Shown here piece by piece: positions 1-45,125 of a stretch of DNA of 45,125 bases. Below the pieces are notes generated by a model. The model had not been told where the DNA came from. It made no database searches and was given only the letters and a program-made list of their open reading frames with translations. Within the stretch, counting starts at the first letter, position 1. Each line of letters starts with the position of its first letter. Made by a program: the position numbers and the translations under genes. Source of the DNA: a bacterium (GTDB lineage: Bacteria > JAMCPX01); assembly GCA_049966275.1 (NCBI GenBank), contig JBMFUY010000003.1, positions 1 to 45,125 of the forward strand, written 5' to 3'.

Positions 1-82
1 AATATTCGAAGAATACCTATATTTGACGCAGGCTTTTCACTCATTACACAAACTTCCCTCTTTCGCAAACGCATTTTTGGGT
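1..82 (+). repeat. Partial copy (long variant) of dispersed palindromic MITE-like repeat
   Basis: 7-82 is a near-identical reverse complement of 45049-45125; its 3' part (tcactcattacacaaacttccc...gcatttttgggt) matches the copies at 12753, 15396 and 40349. Confidence 0.9.
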
Positions 83-9293: not shown

Positions 9294-10772
9294 ATGAATA
9301 AAGGTATCTCAACAAATGCAAAGGTTGGTATATTTATAGTAGCTGTACTTTTACTTCTGTTCTGGATCACCTTCAAAATAAGCAGTGGCACTATCTTTGG
9401 AAAGCTGAAAGGCTACAAATTAACTGCAGTGTTTGACAGTGCACAGGGGCTTAATACGAAAACAAGGGTTTACCTTGCTGGTATACAGATAGGGTATGTT
9501 GAAGATATAAAACTACAGGATGATAAAGCCCTGGTTGTTTTAAGGATCATGCCGGATGTTAAGATAGAAGAGAACGCAAAGGCTGTTATAAGAACAAAAG
9601 GACTACTCGGTGAAAAATACATTGAGATCGTACCAGGAAAACAGGAGGCTGAAGTGATCCCACCGGGTGGACAGATTACATTTACAGAATCTCCACCTGA
9701 TTTTGAAGAGCTTATGAACAAACTAAATAGCATTGCCTCTGATGTTAAATCTGTAACCCAGAGCTTAAATGAAGTTTTCGGAGGTTCACAGGGAGAAAGA
9801 AATATAAAGGATATGGTTGATAATCTCAACAGAACCATCGTTCATATGGATCGGCTTATAACAACTACAAATTCAAACCTCAATAAAACATTTGATTCAG
9901 TTGATGTGTTCGCACAGGCTCTAAGAGAAAACGGACCTGACATCCTTGCGAATTTAGCCAGGATTTCCGAGGAACTTCATGAGATCATTGCTGAGAACAA
10001 AAAATCAGTGTCTCAGACTATGGAGAATATAGATAAGGCAAGCAAAAAATTGGATGAAACACTTGCAAACCTTCAGGTAATAACAAACAATCTTAAAGAA
10101 GGTAAAGGAACCATAGGTAAACTTCTTTCAGATAAGAAGACAGAGGAACAGGTTACAAAAACAATAAGCGGTTTAAGCACAATGGTCGGTGGAACATCCA
10201 GATTCAGAACTATTATAAATTATCGTGGGGAGTACCAGTTTCTCTATCATAATGTAAAAAGCTATCTTGATCTGAGACTTCAACCTACATGGGATAAATA
10301 CTTTTTACTTGGTATTGTTGATGATCCAGGTGGATACTCTTCAACCTCCACTACGTACACAATGGTCAAGGATCTTAACACCGGGACAGTCCAGCAGACA
10401 CAAACCATCAATCACAATATATCTAACCAGCTTAAAATAAACGCTGAGATCGCAAAACGTATATCCTATTTTACATTTCGTGGAGGTATCATAGAATCAA
10501 CAGGTGGCATAGGTGTTGACATACATTCACCCAATGATCTGGCAGAGCTAAGCCTTGAGATGTTTAATTTTAATGAAAAGCCATACCCTGAGCTTAAGGC
10601 AATGCTCAGCATCTCTATATTAAGATACTTTTTACTCTCAGGTGGTATGACAGACATTGCAAATGCAAATGCAAGAACATGGTTTACAGGGCTTGGAATA
10701 AGGTTTGATGATGAGGATCTGAAGAATATTTTCGGACTTGCTGCAAGTACAACATACGTAAACACTAAATAG
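9294..10772 (+). CDS. mlaD: Long MlaD/MCE protein with helical linker and C-terminal beta-rich domain
   Basis: N-terminal TM, MCE motifs (A.GL...V.LAGI.IG.V; GLLGEKYIEI.PG), GKGTIGKLL, beta-rich tail. Confidence 0.85.
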   Translation: MNKGISTNAKVGIFIVAVLLLLFWITFKISSGTIFGKLKGYKLTAVFDSAQGLNTKTRVYLAGIQIGYVEDIKLQDDKALVVLRIMPDVKIEENAKAVIRTKGLLGEKYIEIVPGKQEAEVIPPGGQITFTESPPDFEELMNKLNSIASDVKSVTQSLNEVFGGSQGERNIKDMVDNLNRTIVHMDRLITTTNSNLNKTFDSVDVFAQALRENGPDILANLARISEELHEIIAENKKSVSQTMENIDKASKKLDETLANLQVITNNLKEGKGTIGKLLSDKKTEEQVTKTISGLSTMVGGTSRFRTIINYRGEYQFLYHNVKSYLDLRLQPTWDKYFLLGIVDDPGGYSSTSTTYTMVKDLNTGTVQQTQTINHNISNQLKINAEIAKRISYFTFRGGIIESTGGIGVDIHSPNDLAELSLEMFNFNEKPYPELKAMLSISILRYFLLSGGMTDIANANARTWFTGLGIRFDDEDLKNIFGLAASTTYVNTK

Positions 10773-10776
10773 AATA

Positions 10777-10806
10777 TTACAAAGAAACTCTGTTCAAAGA
10801 TATACT
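10777..10806 (+). promoter_or_regulatory. Candidate sigma70 promoter for eno
   Basis: TTACAA-18 bp-TATACT followed by SD AGGAGG. Confidence 0.4.
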
Positions 10807-10823
10807 ATAAAAAGGAGGTTTTT

Positions 10824-12110
10824 ATGTTAAAAATAGAAGACATACTGGCATTGGAGATACTGGATTCAAGGGGTAATCCTACAGTGGAGGTAACTGTAAA
10901 GCTTGACAATGGCACATTTGCAACAGCAAAAGTTCCATCCGGAGCTTCAACAGGAGAAAGAGAGGCAATAGAATTAAGGGATGGTGATAAAAAGCGATAT
11001 CAGGGCAAAGGCGTTTTAAAGGTAATAAATAACATCCTGAAATTGATAAAACCAGCTCTAAAGGGTATGGAGCCATTTGATCAAATGGCAATAGACAAAA
11101 GGCTTATAGAGCTTGATGGAACAGAAACAAAGTCTAAATTGGGCGCTAATGCCATACTCGCTGTTTCTCTGGCTGTGGCGCATGCAGGCGCAAAAGCACT
11201 GAATATGCCACTGTACAAATACATAGGTGGTGTTGATACACCAGTACTTCCAGTACCCATGTTAAACGTATTAAATGGTGGTAAGCACGCTGATACAAAC
11301 GTAGATTTTCAAGAATATATGATAGTGCCTGCTGGTTTAAAATCCTTTAAAGAGGCATTAAGAGCATCTGTAGAGGTTTATCACACCTTGAAATCTATTT
11401 TAAAAGAGAAATCACTTGTAAGCTCTATTGGTGATGAGGGTGGTTTTGCTCCTAACCTGAAAAACAATGAGGAACCTCTTCAATTCCTGTTCAAGGCTAT
11501 AGAGAAAGCAGGGTACAAACCCGGTAAAGACATCTACCTTGCCATGGACCCTGCTTCAAGCGAATTCTACAGCAATGGAAAATATAATCTAAAAGATGAA
11601 GGCAGAAAACTCAGTTCAGAGCAGATGGTGGATCTGTATGAGAAACTTGTAAATGCCTATCCACTTATAAGTATTGAAGATGGGCTTGCTGAAGATGATT
11701 GGGATGGATGGGTGATATTGAAGAAAAGACTTGGCTCAAAGATCCAGCTTGTTGCAGACGATCTTACTGTAACAAACACAAAGTATATAAAAAAGGCTAT
11801 TGATATGGATGCTGCAAACTCTGTGCTGATCAAACTCAATCAAATCGGTACGCTTACAGAAACTATGGAAGCTATAAGGATGGTAAAATCGCATGGTTGG
11901 ACCGCGGTTGTATCGCATCGTTCCGGAGAAACAGATGATACAACCATATCAGACCTTACTGTGGCTGCAAACACTGGTTTTATAAAAACAGGTGCCCCTG
12001 CAAGAGGGGAACGTGTGGCAAAGTACAACCGTTTGCTCGAGATTGAATATGAACTTGGTTCAAGGGCTATATACCCTGGCATGCAGGCTTTTACAAGTAT
12101 AGAGAGATGA
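10824..12110 (+). CDS. eno: Enolase
   Basis: [43 protein letters not shown]. Confidence 0.98.
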
Positions 12111-12141
12111 ACCGTTACTTCATAGGTTTTCACCACTAAAA

Positions 12142-12744
12142 ATGTACATAAGGAAGGATGGGTATTATAAGCTCGCAAAACAGCATGGATACAGATCCAG
12201 GGCTTCTTTTAAGCTCATTCAGCTGAATAACTCTTACCACCTTATCCGTAGAGGTGATACAGTGCTGGATATAGGCGCCTCGCCAGGCGGATGGATGCAG
12301 GTGGCTATTGAACTTGTTGGCAATAAGGGAAAGGTTATTGGGATTGACGTTCTTGATATACCTAATTTTAATTGTCCGAATGCTGTCCCTGTAAAGGGAG
12401 ATATAAACGAGCCATTGGTTAGAAGATACGCTTTAGAGCTCAACAAGGGTAAATTTGATACAGTAATGTCAGATGTCTCAATTAATATCACAGGGAATGT
12501 TTTTTATGATACAAGCAAAAACCTGGAGATGGCTACACTGATACTATCGTATCTGCCAGAGCTTTTAAAAGACAATGGTAATTTTCTCATCAAGTTATTT
12601 TACAGTAATGAGCTTAAATCTTTTCTTGATAAAGCCTGTGTGTGTTTTAAGAACACATATACAACCAAACCCAGGGCATCAAGGAGTTCTTCATCAGAAC
12701 TTTATATGATTGGTAAGGGATTCCTCACTTCAAAGTGCAAATGA
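12142..12744 (+). CDS. rlmE: 23S rRNA Um2552 methyltransferase RlmE/FtsJ
   Basis: GYRSRASFKL, LDIGASPGGW, KP.ASR..S.ELY. Confidence 0.92.
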   Translation: MYIRKDGYYKLAKQHGYRSRASFKLIQLNNSYHLIRRGDTVLDIGASPGGWMQVAIELVGNKGKVIGIDVLDIPNFNCPNAVPVKGDINEPLVRRYALELNKGKFDTVMSDVSINITGNVFYDTSKNLEMATLILSYLPELLKDNGNFLIKLFYSNELKSFLDKACVCFKNTYTTKPRASRSSSSELYMIGKGFLTSKCK

Positions 12745-12752
12745 TCGGGTTA

Positions 12753-12848
12753 ACCTGAAAAATGCAATAGGAAAGTTTGCTCATTCGTTCGGGGTACCCC
12801 ATCACTCATTACACAAACTTCCCTATTTTGCAAACGCGTTTTTCGGGT
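12753..12848 (+). repeat. Full copy (short variant) of ~96-bp palindromic MITE-like repeat
   Basis: acctgaaaaatgcaataggaaagtttg...ggggtacccc...caaacttccctattttgcaaacgcgtttttcgggt; terminal inverted repeats; fills the gap between convergent rlmE and GH18 genes. Confidence 0.93.
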
Positions 12849-15349
12849 TAATTGTTTGCTATGTAAAGATTCCCGTTACCATCAAACACAATCCCAACAG
12901 GTGTTACAATATTGGTTGAAGCATAACCTGACACACTGCCTGCTGGTGTAACCTTATAGATTGTATTGTTACCATAACAAGCCACATAGATGTTGCCTGA
13001 TGTATCAACTGTAACACCGTATGGATTGACAAAACCAGATGCAAGAACACTCCATGAACCTGTTGCTGGTGATAATCTATTTAATGTACCAGCAGTAGCA
13101 TCAGCAACATAAAGATAACCATCCACTGGATTATAGACTATGCCTGTTGGGTTTGTGAAACCAGTAGCAAGTGTTGTGAGTGAGCTGCTGGCTATATTTA
13201 TCTTTGATATTGTGCCTGTCCAGTTTGCCACATAAAGATAGCCATTGGCATAAGTCATACCCTGAGGATAGCTGAGCCCTGACGATAAAAATGTTGTTAT
13301 ATTACCGCTTGTGTCTATCTTTGCAATACCTCCAGGGTTTGCATTGTTAGCCACATAAAGATTGCCGGATGCATCATAAGCCATGCCAGTAGGGGTCATA
13401 AACAAACTTGACGTGTATGCAATGCTAACAGTGCCTGTAAGGCTTATCCTGTCTATAAGATTATATGCACTGTTTGATGTGTATAGATATCCACCAGGAT
13501 TGTATACAATGCCCCATGGTTTTCCTAATCCAGATGCAAGGGTTGAGGTGTTAAGAGCAGTATCCACTCTTGTTATTGTTCCATGCAGGTTTGTTGTTAT
13601 GGGTGCATTAACAACAGCATAAACTGCTACGATTGCCCAGAAATTTATACCATTGGGGTCATTAAATGTTAATGTAACAGGTCTTGACTCGTAATGAAAA
13701 TCTATATTCCCGATATTCCAGTACCAGCTTCCAGGGCCGCTTCCACCGGATGGATTTGCCACTGAAACATTACTTGAAGACATACTACCAACAACCATCT
13801 CAACACCTGTCCAGTTGTTCTGGGTATTATTGGTAAGGATTATCTGACCTGATACCACGCCAGCCGAGAAGGTTGGTGTACCATAGTTATACCCATTCAC
13901 CCACACTGTATTATCTGTTGATGCTGTACCTGAAAAATCAGCATAGATCTTATTCCACAAAAATGGATAGGGAGAACCGCTGGGTGTTGGTGCTCCATTG
14001 TCATATCCTAATGCCCACATGCCAATACCCTTTATACCATCATTAATTGCAAGCTGATACTTATCAGATAATGTTGTAGAAATGTCATACCATGCCTGAT
14101 GAGGTGTTGTTGTACAATTGTACAGAGAATACGCTGAATCCTCTGTTGTAGGCTGATAGATGCCAGAGGTATAGCTTGTATTATTGTAATCGTTGTAACA
14201 CGTTGGATAGTAGATGATAGCTGTCCCATTGCTTGATTTAGCAGCACCAAAACTGCATGAAGCAGATGGCCAATCATAACCATAATACGGAACACCAAGT
14301 ATCAATCTTCTTGGATCAGCACCGCTGTTTAAATATGTATTAAGCGTGTTTGTTACATTGTAGTTTGGGTCAAGAGAACCACCTGCAAGCGGTGCAACAG
14401 GTCCAGGATTACCACCTGAGTAATGATAGTCATAACCCATGATGAATTCATCCGCATATTGTGAGATCGCCCTGTAATCAAATGTATTTACCCAATCAAC
14501 TGCAGGTGTGGCAATGGCAACAATAGAGCCAGGAAGATTTTTTGAAAATGTGTTGTAGAGTATCTGCATAAGTGTTGTTAGATTTGCTTTCTGGGTATTA
14601 TCAGGCCACCCTTCAAAATCAATGGCTACTCCATCACCGCCCATTTGTTGAACAAGGTTTAAGGCGTTGTTTGCAAGTGCTGTTTTGTAGCTCTGAAGAA
14701 CACTGTAAAATGTTGAAGAGTTGAAGCTTGTTATGGTCATTATTACCTTGACTCCATGCTGATGTGCTGTTGCTATCCAGTTTGCTGTTGTTGGTGAGTT
14801 CCATGCAGGGTTGTTAGTATCTGACAATGTCCCATCTGAATTCAGTCCAACTGAAAAATATGCAACTGTTGTCAGGAGCTCCCAGTGCATATCTGCAAGC
14901 GTGGTGGAGTTTTCCTCCCAGTATGGTAGAAATCCAAAAATCTCTTTGTTAACAAGTGGTGTGCTCTGTGGTACGGTTAGGGCAAGTGGTTTTAATAATG
15001 ATCTGCTGGGCCACAAAGGCGCAGTCTCTGTTGGCGTATAACCGATATGTTGTTCATACTGTAACTGGTGTATGGACACCGCGGGTAAAGGTCCGATACT
15101 CTCACTCAAAAGTTGCATGTTGGGCCTGGGAATAATAGCCTGTTCATTCAACGGAATGGGCCCATTGGGTTCTATCTTGAAAATACCTTTTGATGGGTCT
15201 GCATAAAGTCTTAAACTTCCCAGATAAACCCTGTTACCTTTATTATAGGTTGGGGTAACATCTTTTTTGCTACATGCTTCAAGGAATACAATAAAGAGGA
15301 TAAGGAATAATAACAGCATCCTGTTGTGTTTTATTTTAGGACCATTCAT
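12848..15349 (-). CDS. Secreted lipoprotein: GH18 (chitobiase/SleL-like) domain plus C-terminal NHL/Vgb-like beta-propeller
   Basis: Lipobox LEAC; DGVAIDFE, MGYDYH, LILGVPYYGYDW, GIGMWALGYD; six P.G..(D..GN)LYV repeats; SD GGAGGG. Confidence 0.85.
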   Translation of the reverse strand: MNGPKIKHNRMLLLFLILFIVFLEACSKKDVTPTYNKGNRVYLGSLRLYADPSKGIFKIEPNGPIPLNEQAIIPRPNMQLLSESIGPLPAVSIHQLQYEQHIGYTPTETAPLWPSRSLLKPLALTVPQSTPLVNKEIFGFLPYWEENSTTLADMHWELLTTVAYFSVGLNSDGTLSDTNNPAWNSPTTANWIATAHQHGVKVIMTITSFNSSTFYSVLQSYKTALANNALNLVQQMGGDGVAIDFEGWPDNTQKANLTTLMQILYNTFSKNLPGSIVAIATPAVDWVNTFDYRAISQYADEFIMGYDYHYSGGNPGPVAPLAGGSLDPNYNVTNTLNTYLNSGADPRRLILGVPYYGYDWPSASCSFGAAKSSNGTAIIYYPTCYNDYNNTSYTSGIYQPTTEDSAYSLYNCTTTPHQAWYDISTTLSDKYQLAINDGIKGIGMWALGYDNGAPTPSGSPYPFLWNKIYADFSGTASTDNTVWVNGYNYGTPTFSAGVVSGQIILTNNTQNNWTGVEMVVGSMSSSNVSVANPSGGSGPGSWYWNIGNIDFHYESRPVTLTFNDPNGINFWAIVAVYAVVNAPITTNLHGTITRVDTALNTSTLASGLGKPWGIVYNPGGYLYTSNSAYNLIDRISLTGTVSIAYTSSLFMTPTGMAYDASGNLYVANNANPGGIAKIDTSGNITTFLSSGLSYPQGMTYANGYLYVANWTGTISKINIASSSLTTLATGFTNPTGIVYNPVDGYLYVADATAGTLNRLSPATGSWSVLASGFVNPYGVTVDTSGNIYVACYGNNTIYKVTPAGSVSGYASTNIVTPVGIVFDGNGNLYIANN

Positions 15350-15395
15350 TGTTTGTTTTCCCTCCTTCCCGGTTTAAAAGGATTTTATCACTGTC

Positions 15396-15490
15396 AACCA
15401 AAAATGCAATGGGAAAGTTTGCTCATTCGTTCGGGGTACCCCATCACTCATTACACAAACTTCCCTATTTCGCAAACGCATTTTTCGGGT
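15396..15490 (+). repeat. Full copy (short variant) of palindromic MITE-like repeat
   Basis: Near-identical direct repeat of 12753-12848, between the divergent GH18 and TolB-like genes. Confidence 0.93.
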
Positions 15491-15543
15491 TAATGTTTGT
15501 TGTAAATAGTACATGTTTAAGATATAAAAGTAATGGTTGGAGT

Positions 15544-19564: not shown

Positions 19565-19571
19565 TGATGCT

Positions 19572-19604
19572 TCCTTTAAGTTAATCCTGAGAGGTTAACA
19601 AGGA
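19572..19604 (+). promoter_or_regulatory. PyrR binding loop (anti-antiterminator RNA)
   Basis: tccttTAAgttAATCCTGAGAGGTTaacaagga matches UUUAA + ARUCCNGNGAGGYU consensus with paired stems. Confidence 0.9.
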
Positions 19605-19632
19605 TGAGCTGGAAAGTGGTTAAGCAGTTTTT

Positions 19633-19668
19633 AAACAGCCTTCCTTAGTAAAGGAAGGCTGTTTTTTT
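19633..19668 (+). terminator. Intrinsic attenuator terminator of the pyr leader
   Basis: aaacagccttcctt-agta-aaggaaggctgttt hairpin with T7 run; 19600-19611 can pair with its 5' arm as antiterminator. Confidence 0.9.
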
Positions 19669-19690
19669 ATTAGGTATAGGAGAGGCTAAC

Positions 19691-20227
19691 ATGAAGAATA
19701 AAATCATGGATGCTGTGGGTATAGAAAGGGCTTTGAAGCGCATTGCCCATGAAATTATAGAAAGGCATGTTTCTGTTCCTGTAAGGCTTGTTGGTATAAG
19801 GACAGCTGGTGTGTTTATAGCCTCACGCCTTGCAGGTTACATAAAAGAGTATGGTAAACTGCCAGTAGAAACAGGAGCACTGGATATAACCCTTTACAGG
19901 GATGATGTTGCCATGAAGATAGGGAAGGCTATTGTTAGATCAACAGAGATAGACTTCCCTGTAGAAGGAGCATACATAATCCTTGTTGACGATGTCCTCT
20001 TCACGGGTCGCACGATCAGGGCTGCAATGGATGCAATAATAGACCTTGGTAGACCGAAGGTTATTCAGCTTGCAGTACTTGTGGATAGAGGGCATAGAGA
20101 ATTTCCTATAAAGGCAGACTTTATAGGTAAAAATGTGCCAACAGCAGAGGATGATCAGATAAAGGTTGTGTTAAAAGAAGGTGATAGTAATGAGGACGCA
20201 GTGTTTTTAATAAAGAAAGGAGGTTAG
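19691..20227 (+). CDS. pyrR: Pyrimidine operon attenuation protein / UPRTase PyrR
   Basis: RIAHEI.E, LDITLYRDD, LVDDVLFTGRTIRAA, VDRGHRE.PI. Confidence 0.95.
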   Translation: MKNKIMDAVGIERALKRIAHEIIERHVSVPVRLVGIRTAGVFIASRLAGYIKEYGKLPVETGALDITLYRDDVAMKIGKAIVRSTEIDFPVEGAYIILVDDVLFTGRTIRAAMDAIIDLGRPKVIQLAVLVDRGHREFPIKADFIGKNVPTAEDDQIKVVLKEGDSNEDAVFLIKKGG

Positions 20228-32042: not shown

Positions 32043-33839
32043 ATGACAAGAAAAAAACGAACATCAAGTATGCGAAACAAACGCAATCCATCAACAAAGA
32101 AACGAGAAATAAAACCTCTAAATGAAAATTTAAACGACAGTGTGGAAAAACTGATCAACCTTGGCAAGGACAAGGGTTTCTTAACCTTTGAGGAGGTTAA
32201 CAACCTCTTACCTGCTGATATTGTCTCTCCGGATCAGATAAACGAGGTTATGAACATGTTTGGAGAGCTTGATATAGAGGTTGTTGATTCAAATAAGAAC
32301 ATAAAGGTTCAACAAAGTTATAAGGTACAGGAAGAAGAGGAAGAGGAAGAAGCCAAATCTTATGAAAGGCTTAATGACCCTATAAAGCTCTATCTAAGAG
32401 AGATGGGCAATATGCCTCTTCTAACACGAGAGTGGGAGGTTGGTATAGCTAAAGCCATTGAAGAGGGAAGAAAAAAGGTTTTTAATGCATTGCTTTCCTC
32501 CCCGGTAACCATGAAGGAGATTAAAGAGGTACAGGATAAACTACTTAACAATGCAATAAAGATAAAAGACGTCATAAGGGAAATAGATGAGGACTTCACA
32601 CCTGAGGAAGAGGAAGAGACCATTCAGAAAACATTGTCCATTATCAAAAAGATGATAGCCCTTGAAGAGGAGAGGAAAACCTATAGAGAAATTCTTAGGA
32701 AGAATAAGAATTCCAGGCATGCTAAAGAAGAGATGGATAAACTGAACGAGAAGATCGCCAATCTCCTTATAGGGCTTTCTCCAAACGAAAAGTTTATAAT
32801 GCAGATAACAGAAAAACTTAGAACACTTGTTGATAGGATTGACTCAGCAGAAGCAGAACTAAGGAACTGTTCCAGAGAGACAAACATTCCCATAGAGACA
32901 TTTAAAACCTATCTACCTGCAATTAACAGATCAGCAAAAGAGGCAAGAAGTATAGCCAATAAGTACAAAATAGAATATGACAAATTCAAAGAGATCGTCA
33001 GAAGGATTAAAAACGCATTAAATCAAATCAAATCAGTTGAGAGTGAAGCAGAGTCAGACAGTGCAACACTCAGAAAAACCTTAAATGAGGTTTTAATAGG
33101 TGAGGAAGAAACAAAAAAGGCAAAAGAAAAGCTGATATTAGCCAATTTGAGGCTCGTGGTTAGTATAGCCAAAAAATACACGAACAGAGGACTCAGCCTT
33201 GCTGATCTGATTCAGGAGGGTAATATAGGATTGATGAAAGCCGTTGATAAATTTGAGTATCAGCGCGGTTATAAGTTCAGTACATATGCTACATGGTGGG
33301 TAAGACAGGCTATAACACGCGCTATTGCAGATCAGGCGAGAACCATAAGAATACCTGTCCATATGATAGAGACAATTAATAAGTTGATAAGAACATCAAG
33401 GTACCTTGTTCAGGAGATAGGCAGGGAGCCCCTTCCTGAAGAGATTGCAGAAAAGATGGAACTTCCTGTTGACAAAGTAAGAAAAGTATTGAAAATAGCT
33501 AAAGAACCTATTTCTCTTGAAACCCCTATCGGGGAAGAGGAAGATAGCCATTTGATAGATTTTATAGAGGATAAATCTTTTGCAGGACCTCATGAAGTTA
33601 TTACGAATGAGAATTTACAATATTTTACAAGGAGTGCTTTGAGTACCCTTACACCTCGAGAAGAAAAGGTGTTGAGATTGAGGTTTGGCATAGGAGAGAA
33701 GTCAGACCACACGCTTGAAGAGGTTGGAAAGGACTTTGAAGTTACAAGAGAAAGAATAAGACAGATAGAGGCAAAGGCATTAAGGAAGTTAAGACACCCA
33801 AGCCGTAGCAAATATTTGAAGACGTTCATAAGTGATTAG
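32043..33839 (+). CDS. rpoD: RNA polymerase primary sigma factor sigma70
   Basis: Region 1.1, [40 protein letters not shown]. Confidence 0.98.
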
Positions 33840-33911
33840 GGCCCATAGCTCAGCTGGTAGAGCTACCGGCTCATAACCGGTTGGTCCCTGGTTCGAGTCC
33901 AGGTGGGCCCA
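33839..33911 (+). tRNA. tRNA with CAT anticodon, most likely tRNA-Ile2 (lysidine); CCA not encoded
   Basis: Cloverleaf: GGGCCCA/TGGGCCC acceptor, GCTC/GAGC D-stem, ACCGG-CTCATAA-CCGGT, CCTGG-TTCGAGT-CCAGG; G1-C72 pair argues against initiator. Confidence 0.93.
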
Positions 33912-40349: not shown

Positions 40350-40444
40350 CCCGAAAAATGCGTTTATGAAATAGGGAAGTTTGTATAATGAGTGATGGGG
40401 TACCCCGAACGAAAGAGCAAACTTTCCTATTGCAATTTTTGGGT
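40349..40444 (-). repeat. Full copy (short variant, inverted) of palindromic MITE-like repeat
   Basis: acccgaaaaatgc...ggggtacccc...gcaatttttgggt, reverse complement of the 12753/15396 copies with a few substitutions. Confidence 0.92.
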
Positions 40445-40493
40445 CAAGCGAATTTTATTTTCCAAACAAGGGTTTTTATGTATAATGCGTCAC

Positions 40494-41864
40494 ATGAGAG
40501 GTTTTAAATCTACACTTATAAAAACATTTGCCTTACCGCTGGTTATTATAACTTTATTTTTTACAAACAATATTGTTTACGCAGATAGTTGTAAGTTTAC
40601 AAGAACATTTGATCCTGTTATAATTGAAGGAGCAAAACTCTCTCCATTTTTAGGAGAGGATATAAACAATCTCAGGCTTTACAGTGTTAATAAAAAAGGC
40701 AAAAGCATAGAGGTTCACCCCATACCTTTTCAAATTGATGAGCTAGATGAAAAAGGAGATTGGATTTTTAATTTTGATAAACACGGTAACCCTTTACCAT
40801 TAAAGAGAACCTCATTAGCACCACAGGATCAGCTTGTGTTCATGGCAAAGGATGCTGGTATAAAAACAGAAATAGATCAGCATGGGTTTAAGGGGGCAAA
40901 AGCCATAGAAATAGAGCTTACAGATCCTTTGAATAATACCCATGCTTATGTATATCTCTTGTACTTTAAGAGTGATCCTCCACCTCTTTCGCCGGTGCAC
41001 TATGTTAAGTACGATCCCACAAAAGATATGGTAACTGCAGGATTATACGTGATGGGTTTCTCAAAAACATCACCTATATCTTATGACTACTATGCTGTTC
41101 CTAAATCTGCAGGTGGTGAAGGAATAAACATATTTGATAGATTTAAAATGAGGCTTGATATAGACACCTCATTGCTTAATATACACAGAGACGAAAGCCA
41201 GTTCAAGTCAAGGCTCGTTGGATACATTCAGGGACCTGTACGCGTTATAAGGAGGGTTGCAAATTCCATGTACATTGCTCTGGGTTTTCAATCACCGGCA
41301 GTTCTATCAGATAGTCTGTATTATTATGATTTTTTTCAGTTTCCAACAGTCGTTGATATTCCAATTGATCTCCAGAAACTATACATAATAAAAAAGGCTC
41401 GTCTTATTACTTCAACTGATTTCAATCATAATGCAATTGGTATGTATTTTTATAATTCAACCAATCCAGGAGGACTTAAAATTACAGGTACAATGAGTAA
41501 AGCACAGGAAGGATTGGATAGATCACCTTATGATTGGGCTGTTGTTTCTGGCCCACAAGGGGCATGGATGAACAGGGTTGTTATGGGTAAAGAAGTGCCA
41601 TTTACAAAAAGGCTTTATTTTGTTGATGATAAAAACAAACTTGATCCACCGGAGAACGAACCAGGTCAGATAGCTAATACCGGTTATGATTTTGGTAATC
41701 TTATGAGAGCAAAAAAGGGCGTATACACCTTTACATCGTATATATATGTTCCTGTAGGTTACAAACCAGGTGATGAAAAACCATGGCTGAATATTATTGA
41801 CCATCCTGTTAATTATGTGATTTATTATAATGGTAAACAGGTTAGAACTGGCGAATTACAATAA
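40494..41864 (+). CDS. Secreted hypothetical protein (beta-rich)
   Basis: Signal peptide from ATG 40494 (MRGFK...VYA|D); TATAAT at 40481-40486; ORF-track start lies within the repeat. Confidence 0.75.
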   Translation: MRGFKSTLIKTFALPLVIITLFFTNNIVYADSCKFTRTFDPVIIEGAKLSPFLGEDINNLRLYSVNKKGKSIEVHPIPFQIDELDEKGDWIFNFDKHGNPLPLKRTSLAPQDQLVFMAKDAGIKTEIDQHGFKGAKAIEIELTDPLNNTHAYVYLLYFKSDPPPLSPVHYVKYDPTKDMVTAGLYVMGFSKTSPISYDYYAVPKSAGGEGINIFDRFKMRLDIDTSLLNIHRDESQFKSRLVGYIQGPVRVIRRVANSMYIALGFQSPAVLSDSLYYYDFFQFPTVVDIPIDLQKLYIIKKARLITSTDFNHNAIGMYFYNSTNPGGLKITGTMSKAQEGLDRSPYDWAVVSGPQGAWMNRVVMGKEVPFTKRLYFVDDKNKLDPPENEPGQIANTGYDFGNLMRAKKGVYTFTSYIYVPVGYKPGDEKPWLNIIDHPVNYVIYYNGKQVRTGELQ

Positions 41865-44842: not shown

Positions 44843-45048
44843 AGAATAAGTGTTAGCTAAAATTTTAAGGTGCATCCGACTTCTTAATGGGTATATACAA
44901 GATATAGTGGTTTATGTGTAATATAAAATTATGGGTGAGAAAACTTTTTGGCTCTTCGGGCTTTTATGTGGATAGGTTAAAATGTGGCAAGATACTTTTC
45001 CCCTTTGAAAAAGGATGTCTGACAATTGCTTTTTATATTCCTCCCTTG

Positions 45049-45125
45049 ACCCGAAAAATGCATTTGCGAAATAGGGAAGTTTGTGTAATGAGTGATAACC
45101 CCGCGTCAAATATAGGTATTCTTCG
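45049..45125 (-). repeat. Partial copy (long variant, inverted) of the palindromic repeat
   Basis: Reverse complement of 7-82; truncated by the window end. Confidence 0.9.

Follow-up and report, generated by a model that had tools for sequence, protein, structure and literature searches.

A TTAA-flanked MITE family in a bacterial genome and its probable IS1380-family mobiliser

A palindromic repeat of ~96 bp, scattered along a single bacterial contig with no apparent enzyme beside it, raises two questions: what kind of element it is, and what moves it. The contig, C3 of the G000 assembly (2,488,872 bases in 388 contigs), is the window of this study, i.e., the whole analysed stretch of 45,125 nucleotides, in which a sequence-only reading had reported five copies of the repeat. 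All five were indeed present. When the window was searched for the arm motif AATAGGAAAGTTTG with at most 2 mismatches, 8 occurrences were found against 0.85 expected, a number reached in 0 of 100 shuffles. The hairpin described for the copy at 12753-12848 was likewise reproduced, with its one-sided 8-nt bulge and inner GGGGTACCCC; folded as single-stranded DNA, this copy reached -15.4 kcal/mol (z -3.18), equalled by 2 of 200 shuffles. The ends, on the other hand, had been misplaced: the supposed ACCC...GGGT termini are in truth CCCG...CGGG, the outer A and T being part of a flanking TTAA. In addition, while three of the five copies are complete (92-94 bp), those at 1-81 and 45050-45125 turned out to be longer forms clipped at the contig ends. 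Past the long arm, these two copies continue into a common interior (...GCGTCAAATATAGGTATTCTTCG) instead of the GGGGTACCCC centre, and this interior occurs 46 times genome-wide, within longer elements (216-260-bp forms). The features of the window are listed below, labelled according to the reading argued for in this work.

1..81, plus strand: long-form element clipped by the contig start, with conserved interior at 1-36, long arm with 8-nt insert at 37-81 and terminus ...GCATTTTTGGG
82-85: TACA, flank of the 1..81 copy
12750..12753: TTAA, target-site duplication, left copy
12754..12847, plus strand: complete 94-bp short-form MITE, with short arm, GGGGTACCCC deletion junction and long arm
12848..12851: TTAA, target-site duplication, right copy
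15394-15397: TCAA, left flank of the next copy
15398..15489, plus strand: 92-bp short-form MITE, 97% identical to the 12754 copy
15490-15493: TTAA, right flank of the 15398..15489 copy
40350..40443, minus strand: complete 94-bp short-form MITE, inverted relative to the preceding copies and beginning immediately past the ruvB stop codon; flanks GTAA on the ruvB stop side and TCAA on the right
45046-45049: TTGA, flank of the next copy
45050..45125, minus strand: long-form element clipped by the contig end, with long arm, then conserved interior

The 12754..12847 copy sits between the 3' ends of an ftsJ-like gene (12142-12744) and a GH18 gene (12848-15349, minus), and the 15398..15489 copy is missing 2 nt of its left terminus (CC-AAAAATGC). 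The GH18 gene, which also encodes NHL repeats, thus has a short-form element on either side, the two oriented alike and each with TTAA on its outer side. The gene may have been carried between them, a point on which the TTAA flanks are uninformative. Downstream of the 40350-40443 element lies a 490-aa frame (40392-41864) with no Pfam match; as its listed GTG start falls within the element, the true start is probably further downstream.

We examined the abundance of the repeat in its own genome. With the 96-bp copy as query, BLAST returned 528 matches in G000, mostly less than ~100 nt from contig ends. A fuzzy search of the same 2.49 Mb for termini yielded 527, comprising 258 of the short-arm type, 267 of the long-arm type (these bearing the 8-nt insert) and 2 whose length deviates slightly, which translates into roughly 260 elements, or ~1 per 9.5 kb. 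The element runs into 376 of the 776 contig ends, and, the contig overlaps being 77 nt long, it is the long forms that fragment the G000 assembly; that about half of all contig ends fall in the element thus explains why this genome assembled poorly. Depth over the element in a public metagenome run (X1, which contains 77% of the words sampled from a 6-kb stretch of the window) was 9,600-12,400, a value summed across all organisms and not a copy number.

Fifty copies are fully assembled, 28 of them short (93-97 bp) and 22 long (166-280 bp, their lengths peaking at 218 and 239). The canonical long form (~216-260 bp) consists of a short arm, a ~130-bp conserved core and a long arm carrying the 8-nt insert. 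Long forms are modular. The short arm, to which some copies add a GGGGTACCC-hairpin, leads into ...CGATCCACC... and a variable stem; then come, in turn, GTTTATATGC, TTCGAAGAATACC and TTGACGC. Last is the long arm, preceded in some copies by another hairpin that ends in GGGTACCCC. The arms pair over ~26 nt, with the 8-nt insert on one side, and so form terminal inverted repeats; at full extent they measure 26-34 nt and more, with AATAGGRAAGTTTG as their inner part. In the short form (~92-97 bp), all sequence between two GGGTACCC direct repeats is missing. The short form is thus a derivative of the long form, its core deleted between these repeats, and the "inner palindrome" is the deletion junction. 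The element is non-coding: the sole frame open in some copies varies by non-synonymous, arm-compensating substitutions, as read from the alignment.

The two forms also differ in age. Short forms have a median pairwise identity of 0.894 and intact flank repeats in 13 of 28 copies, versus 0.928 and 18 of 22 for long forms, and are older on average. The suggestion that the family had spread recently therefore fits the long forms, where a burst is seen (the long query copy has six others at 98% identity), and not the short ones, which are only ~89% alike and keep intact duplications in fewer than half of the cases. Two arm pairs lying 1334 bp (C54:3548-4881) and 1581 bp (C75:6535-8115) apart had the look of full-length elements; this was rejected, each being a solo short arm (with up to ~70 nt of core) followed by an ordinary-looking ORF and a complete long-form element. 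These arrangements may represent truncated elements or gene capture. We also observed at least one other dispersed repeat family on many contigs of G000, with ...CCCCTTTTGCCAAAGGGG... hairpins in it (e.g., C9:25400-25600, C33:16800-16930 and C209:3000-3130), within which several copies of our element are inserted.

Evidence of mobility came from the insertion sites. TTAA adjoins 381 of 526 termini (72%), against a background of 0.75% of genome positions, and 31 of the 50 complete copies have identical 4-bp flanks: 29 TTAA, 1 TGAA and 1 TATA. As two of the duplicated flanks are not TTAA, the tetranucleotide is duplicated target rather than part of the element. Moreover, three empty sites were found. 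The element at C31:8603-8864 has TGAA on both sides, and its paralogue on C35 is continuous with a single CGAA. On C127, an IS3-family orfB is interrupted exactly at TTAA|CCCG, and the same IS3 remnants on C28 and C159 run uninterrupted across a single TTAA. Lastly, an IS1380 transposase ORF on C276 is cut at TTAA and runs on across that site both in contigs from run X1 and in insertion sequences (ISs) of two relatives, G005 and G006.

Orthologous sites offered less. The GH18 gene had no orthologue at E 1e-30 or better in 11 relatives, and the ftsJ surroundings showed no synteny with relatives. Downstream of ruvB, a strand-independent BLAST gave element-like matches in 2 of 11 relatives' loci, and among the six relatives whose downstream regions were inspected by eye, G007, G009, G010 and G004 had nothing there. 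Of note, G005 (C67, L092) carries a ~40-bp mini-element, CCAAAAAATGC...GCATTTTTCTGG, just past the ruvB stop, between TAA and TTAA. The mini-element occupies the position of the window copy at 40350-40443, and reflects either an old insertion common to both genomes or a separate event at the same place.

Insertions are strongly intergenic: when the element was removed in silico, an open frame of at least 150 aa spanned 7 of the 50 sites, versus 87% of 1000 random TTAA sites. Orientation with respect to neighbouring genes was unbiased (131/98 vs 115/103, Fisher p 0.39), and neither a promoter-like nor a terminator-like site was found in the canonical form. Taken together, the duplicated targets, the empty sites and the inverted repeats identify the element, almost certainly, as a MITE, a non-autonomous inverted-repeat transposon.

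We then turned to the enzyme. The sequence-only reading had noted the absence of a cognate enzyme nearby, which is correct for the contig itself, where no PF01609, PF13701 or PF01797 match was found; a cognate IS does exist elsewhere. Members of the IS1380 family generate 4-5-bp target repeats and have CC ends. Because the TTAA duplications and CC ends of the element fit this family, we searched the PF13701 profile across the family genomes. Nine PF13701 loci were found, 3 of them with CCCGAAAAATGCATTT beside TTAA. Two of these are full-length ISs (G005:C24, 1616 bp, and G006:C29, 1620 bp) and the third is a right-end remnant (G004:C11), so that an IS with these termini occurs in 3 of the 11 element-bearing relatives. 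A metagenome scan added two further full-length ISs, L125 and L126, whose transposases are 91% and 62% identical, respectively. The IS is ~1.62 kb long with one ORF, and CCCGAAAAATGC stands at both ends of all four full-length copies; the termini read CCCGAAAAATGCATTT, and in L126 CCCGAAAAATGCAGTT. The flanks of the four copies are TTAA/TAAA, TTAA/TTAA, GTCA/TTAA and TTAA/TTAA, i.e., a perfect duplication in 2 of 4.

The transposase of the G005 copy (a 465-aa frame) scored 215.7 bits on the NCBIfam model NF033539, 'IS1380 family transposase' (cut-off 180), and matched PF13701 at 1.3e-33. The G006 copy scored 167.4 bits on NF033539, below the cut-off because its frame is without the N-terminus. 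The G005 protein has 581 database relatives, mostly of ~460 aa on ~1.6-kb contigs, several of which are named IS1380 family transposase at the source. By the curated protein model, then, the partner transposase is an IS1380 family member.

No transposase of this IS was found in the G000 assembly by tblastn, and PF13701 gave only 19.6 bits there, on an unrelated contig. IS ends, in turn, are present: a left end with the ORF start (C276:1638-1780), a right end followed by TTAA (C12:1-89) and a decayed left end (C129). The IS ORF on C276 is cut after ~11 codons by an element, at a TTAA that is conserved in the G005 and G006 ISs. In run X1, the unique flank of C276 had a depth of 4.39, and a second, ~95% identical version of the IS left end had a depth of 14.6. 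Two X1 contigs continue beyond the C276 TTAA with AAAGTAAAAATCAGATTTACCAAT, extending the frame as ...EVNKVKIRFTN, compared with ...GINKVKIRFTG in G005. Since these contigs carry the IS frame past the TTAA, an uninterrupted IS is present in that sample; as X1 is a metagenome, they may derive from other organisms, and an intact IS copy in the same genome is not thereby proven. With no IS transposase in the assembly, the case for activity in G000 is drawn from the IS end remnants and the metagenome-run contigs.

The element and the IS share their outer 12-16 nt, and similarity then drops to 16-19 of the first 22 nt. We entertained the idea that the short arm resembles the left end of the IS and the long arm its right end, and rejected it, both comparisons giving 18/22. 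None of nine conserved core motifs was found in any of the 4 full-length ISs. Given the limited shared ends and the absence of the core from the ISs, the element is not a simple deletion derivative of the IS; its termini point instead to cross-mobilisation by the IS. Thus the notion of a MITE mobilised in trans gained support from target-site duplications, empty sites and full-length ISs with the same termini, and the enzyme that moves the element is probably the IS1380-family transposase.

According to this model, an IS1380-family IS with the same CCCGAAAAATGC start as the element would supply, in trans, the DDE transposase that moves this non-coding sequence. The transposase would bind the outer 12-16 bp common to both arms, make a 4-nt staggered cut at TTAA and join the element ends. 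Copy number would grow as repair or replication restores the donor sites, and selection would remove insertions inside genes, leaving an intergenic population.

A different enzyme could in principle lie behind the same pattern. The MITE might be mobilised by an unsampled transposase, encoded by an autonomous element that has the full 26-34-nt arms and perhaps the core, in which case the termini of the IS1380 member would match merely through relatedness. Such an enzyme would account for the short stretch shared with the IS, for the lack of core motifs in 4 of 4 ISs and for the presence of the IS in just 3 of 11 element-carrying relatives. However, no other element with these termini was found in 12 genomes, and searches with PF01609, PF13358, PF13612, PF01797 and PF07282 gave nothing flanked by the arms. 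Moreover, even where protein identity is down to 62%, the IS begins with CCCGAAAAATGC at each end and targets TTAA, as the element does. We therefore regard an unsampled transposase as improbable. In G000 itself, PF01609 had seven matches, none bounded by the arms (one of them, IS4-like and located on C301, has an element after it), and PF13358 (IS630) and PF07282 (TnpB) had no match. The piggyBac profile PF13843 (DDE_Tnp_1_7) also had no match in G000; its control was silent in all 14 genomes as well, hence this result is uninformative.

The core deserves separate consideration, being the one feature that the MITE reading cannot explain: ~130 bp conserved over genera and yet absent from the IS. 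All 12 family genomes (G000 and 11 relatives, from 5 genera) contain the long form (~224 bp), 70-85% identical to the copy in G000, and none of 29 genomes beyond the family does; plasmid and phage sequences gave no match to the MITE family. When 22 copies from 11 genomes were aligned, mean column identity was 85%, with long invariant core blocks, of which CCTGCGATCC, GTTTATATGC, TTCGAAGAATAC and TTGACGC are nearly invariant over the five genera. The consensus fold of these copies contains 38 pairs, 11 of them with compensatory changes. One of the 11 (columns 45-169) lies far from the element ends and is UA in 11 copies, CG in 10.

This conservation, the long hairpin, the compensatory changes and the intergenic location speak for another alternative, in which the repeat is mainly a structured RNA or a host element of the REP/BIME sort. 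It could then be a terminator, a hairpin that stabilises RNA or a site bound by protein, maintained under selection and multiplied through recombination instead of transposition. The RNA version had been raised from the outset, and the alternative fared poorly. It leaves the 4-bp duplications and clean empty sites unaccounted for, and is at odds with the unbiased orientation relative to neighbouring genes and the want of any promoter- or terminator-like site. Rfam, at gathering score, returned only two hits in the whole window, a tRNA gene (the only one, 33839-33911) and a PyrR-binding leader (19569-19669) upstream of a pyrR-like ORF (19691-20227); when five long-form loci were searched with E values of up to 1 allowed, SmY (E 0.13) was the sole hit, taken as chance. 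As for covariation, it is expected if one protein, such as a single transposase, reads both repeat ends, or from correction between inverted repeats, and does not by itself show an RNA. We thus consider a structured RNA or host element very unlikely.

Somewhat better, and still speculative, is the idea that the core is a functional module within the MITE, either a protein-binding or a structured nucleic-acid unit, and that the element and a TTAA-specific, piggyBac-like bacterial transposase have co-persisted since the family ancestor. This we put forward as a long shot. Were it true, the core would make the element a better substrate, or the host would have come to use it, and the co-persistence of element and transposase would parallel that of REPINs with RAYTs.

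The REPINs themselves offer a further comparison, since palindromic doublets that persist through a whole lineage are a feature they share with our element. Mobilisation of a REPIN-like palindrome by a RAYT (Y1/HUH) transposase would be in keeping with this family-wide persistence, and PF01797 does detect two genes in G000, one of which adjoins an element: a Y1_Tnp-like gene on C127, ~190 bp away. Against this, the C127 gene is itself broken by IS3, and among relatives an element lay within ~1.5 kb of 0 of 28 Y1_Tnp loci. The element also has target duplications, which HUH enzymes are not known to make. With duplications, no RAYT linkage and a DDE partner, the element differs from REPIN-RAYT systems, and we give a RAYT origin hardly any credence. 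The C127 locus (L058, 1010-3116) is a set of nested insertions, in which an IS3-family element (orfA, orfB) sits in the Y1_Tnp-like gene and truncates it, a MITE in turn interrupts orfB, and a second, diverged long-form element lies ~190 bp upstream of the Y1 gene.

An IS982-derived MITE, suggested by the apparent ACCC...GGGT ends, is just as implausible, for the A and T are target bases outside CCCG/CGGG termini and no real PF13612 match exists in 12 of 12 family genomes (21.1 bits in G000, below the cut-off, and one marginal match in the family, 26.7 bits vs 27, with no element beside it). The element is accordingly placed outside the IS982 and REPIN systems, whose defining features were tested for and not found.

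How, then, does the MITE with its probable IS1380-family partner compare with known systems? Like IS1380 family members (e.g., ISEcp1, IS1247 and ISPme1), the partner IS has one ORF, short terminal repeats starting with CC and a 4-bp duplication. The window element is unlike these ISs in being non-autonomous (92-280 bp), in having arms of 26-34 nt and more, versus 16 nt in the IS, in carrying an unrelated conserved core and in its strict preference for TTAA (72% of termini). For IS1247, a 5-bp repeat is given in a table of PMC3281130. In the literature searched, with IS catalogues and supplementary tables outside its scope, we found neither an IS1380-derived MITE nor TTAA specificity in IS1380 described.

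Correia elements of Neisseria (and also RUP, ERIC and BOX) are, by description, similarly small, palindromic and intergenic, with hundreds of copies per ~2-Mb genome, and Correia elements likewise have length variants arising via internal deletion. Correia and RUP duplicate TA. Unlike them, the window element has a cognate IS identified for it. In kind the element is a MITE, with a density similar to that of classical families in small genomes. Elements of this type are familiar, and we found no description of this particular family in the literature searched. In short, it is genuine bacterial mobile DNA of a rather common type, for which the ends have now been corrected and the likely enzyme named.

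A more distant likeness is to eukaryotic piggyBac, which according to PMC10140906 duplicates a TTAA target and has terminal repeats whose first three bases are CCC/GGG. The element and the IS pair the same TTAA duplication with CCC/GGG termini, and differ in having a bacterial host and a partner that matches IS1380 models. In passages of PMC10140906 and PMC10813416, IS1380 transposases serve as the distant prokaryotic relatives of piggyBac. An IS1380 transposase together with a high-copy MITE could therefore make this distant relationship testable at the level of mechanism.

Lastly, one of the PF01609 frames of G000, 570 aa long, lies on C256 (2094 bp). With inverted ends of ~25 nt (TTGCTTAAATCCTAATGCTTTTAC), this contig has the appearance of another, complete IS, one that bears no relation to the element.
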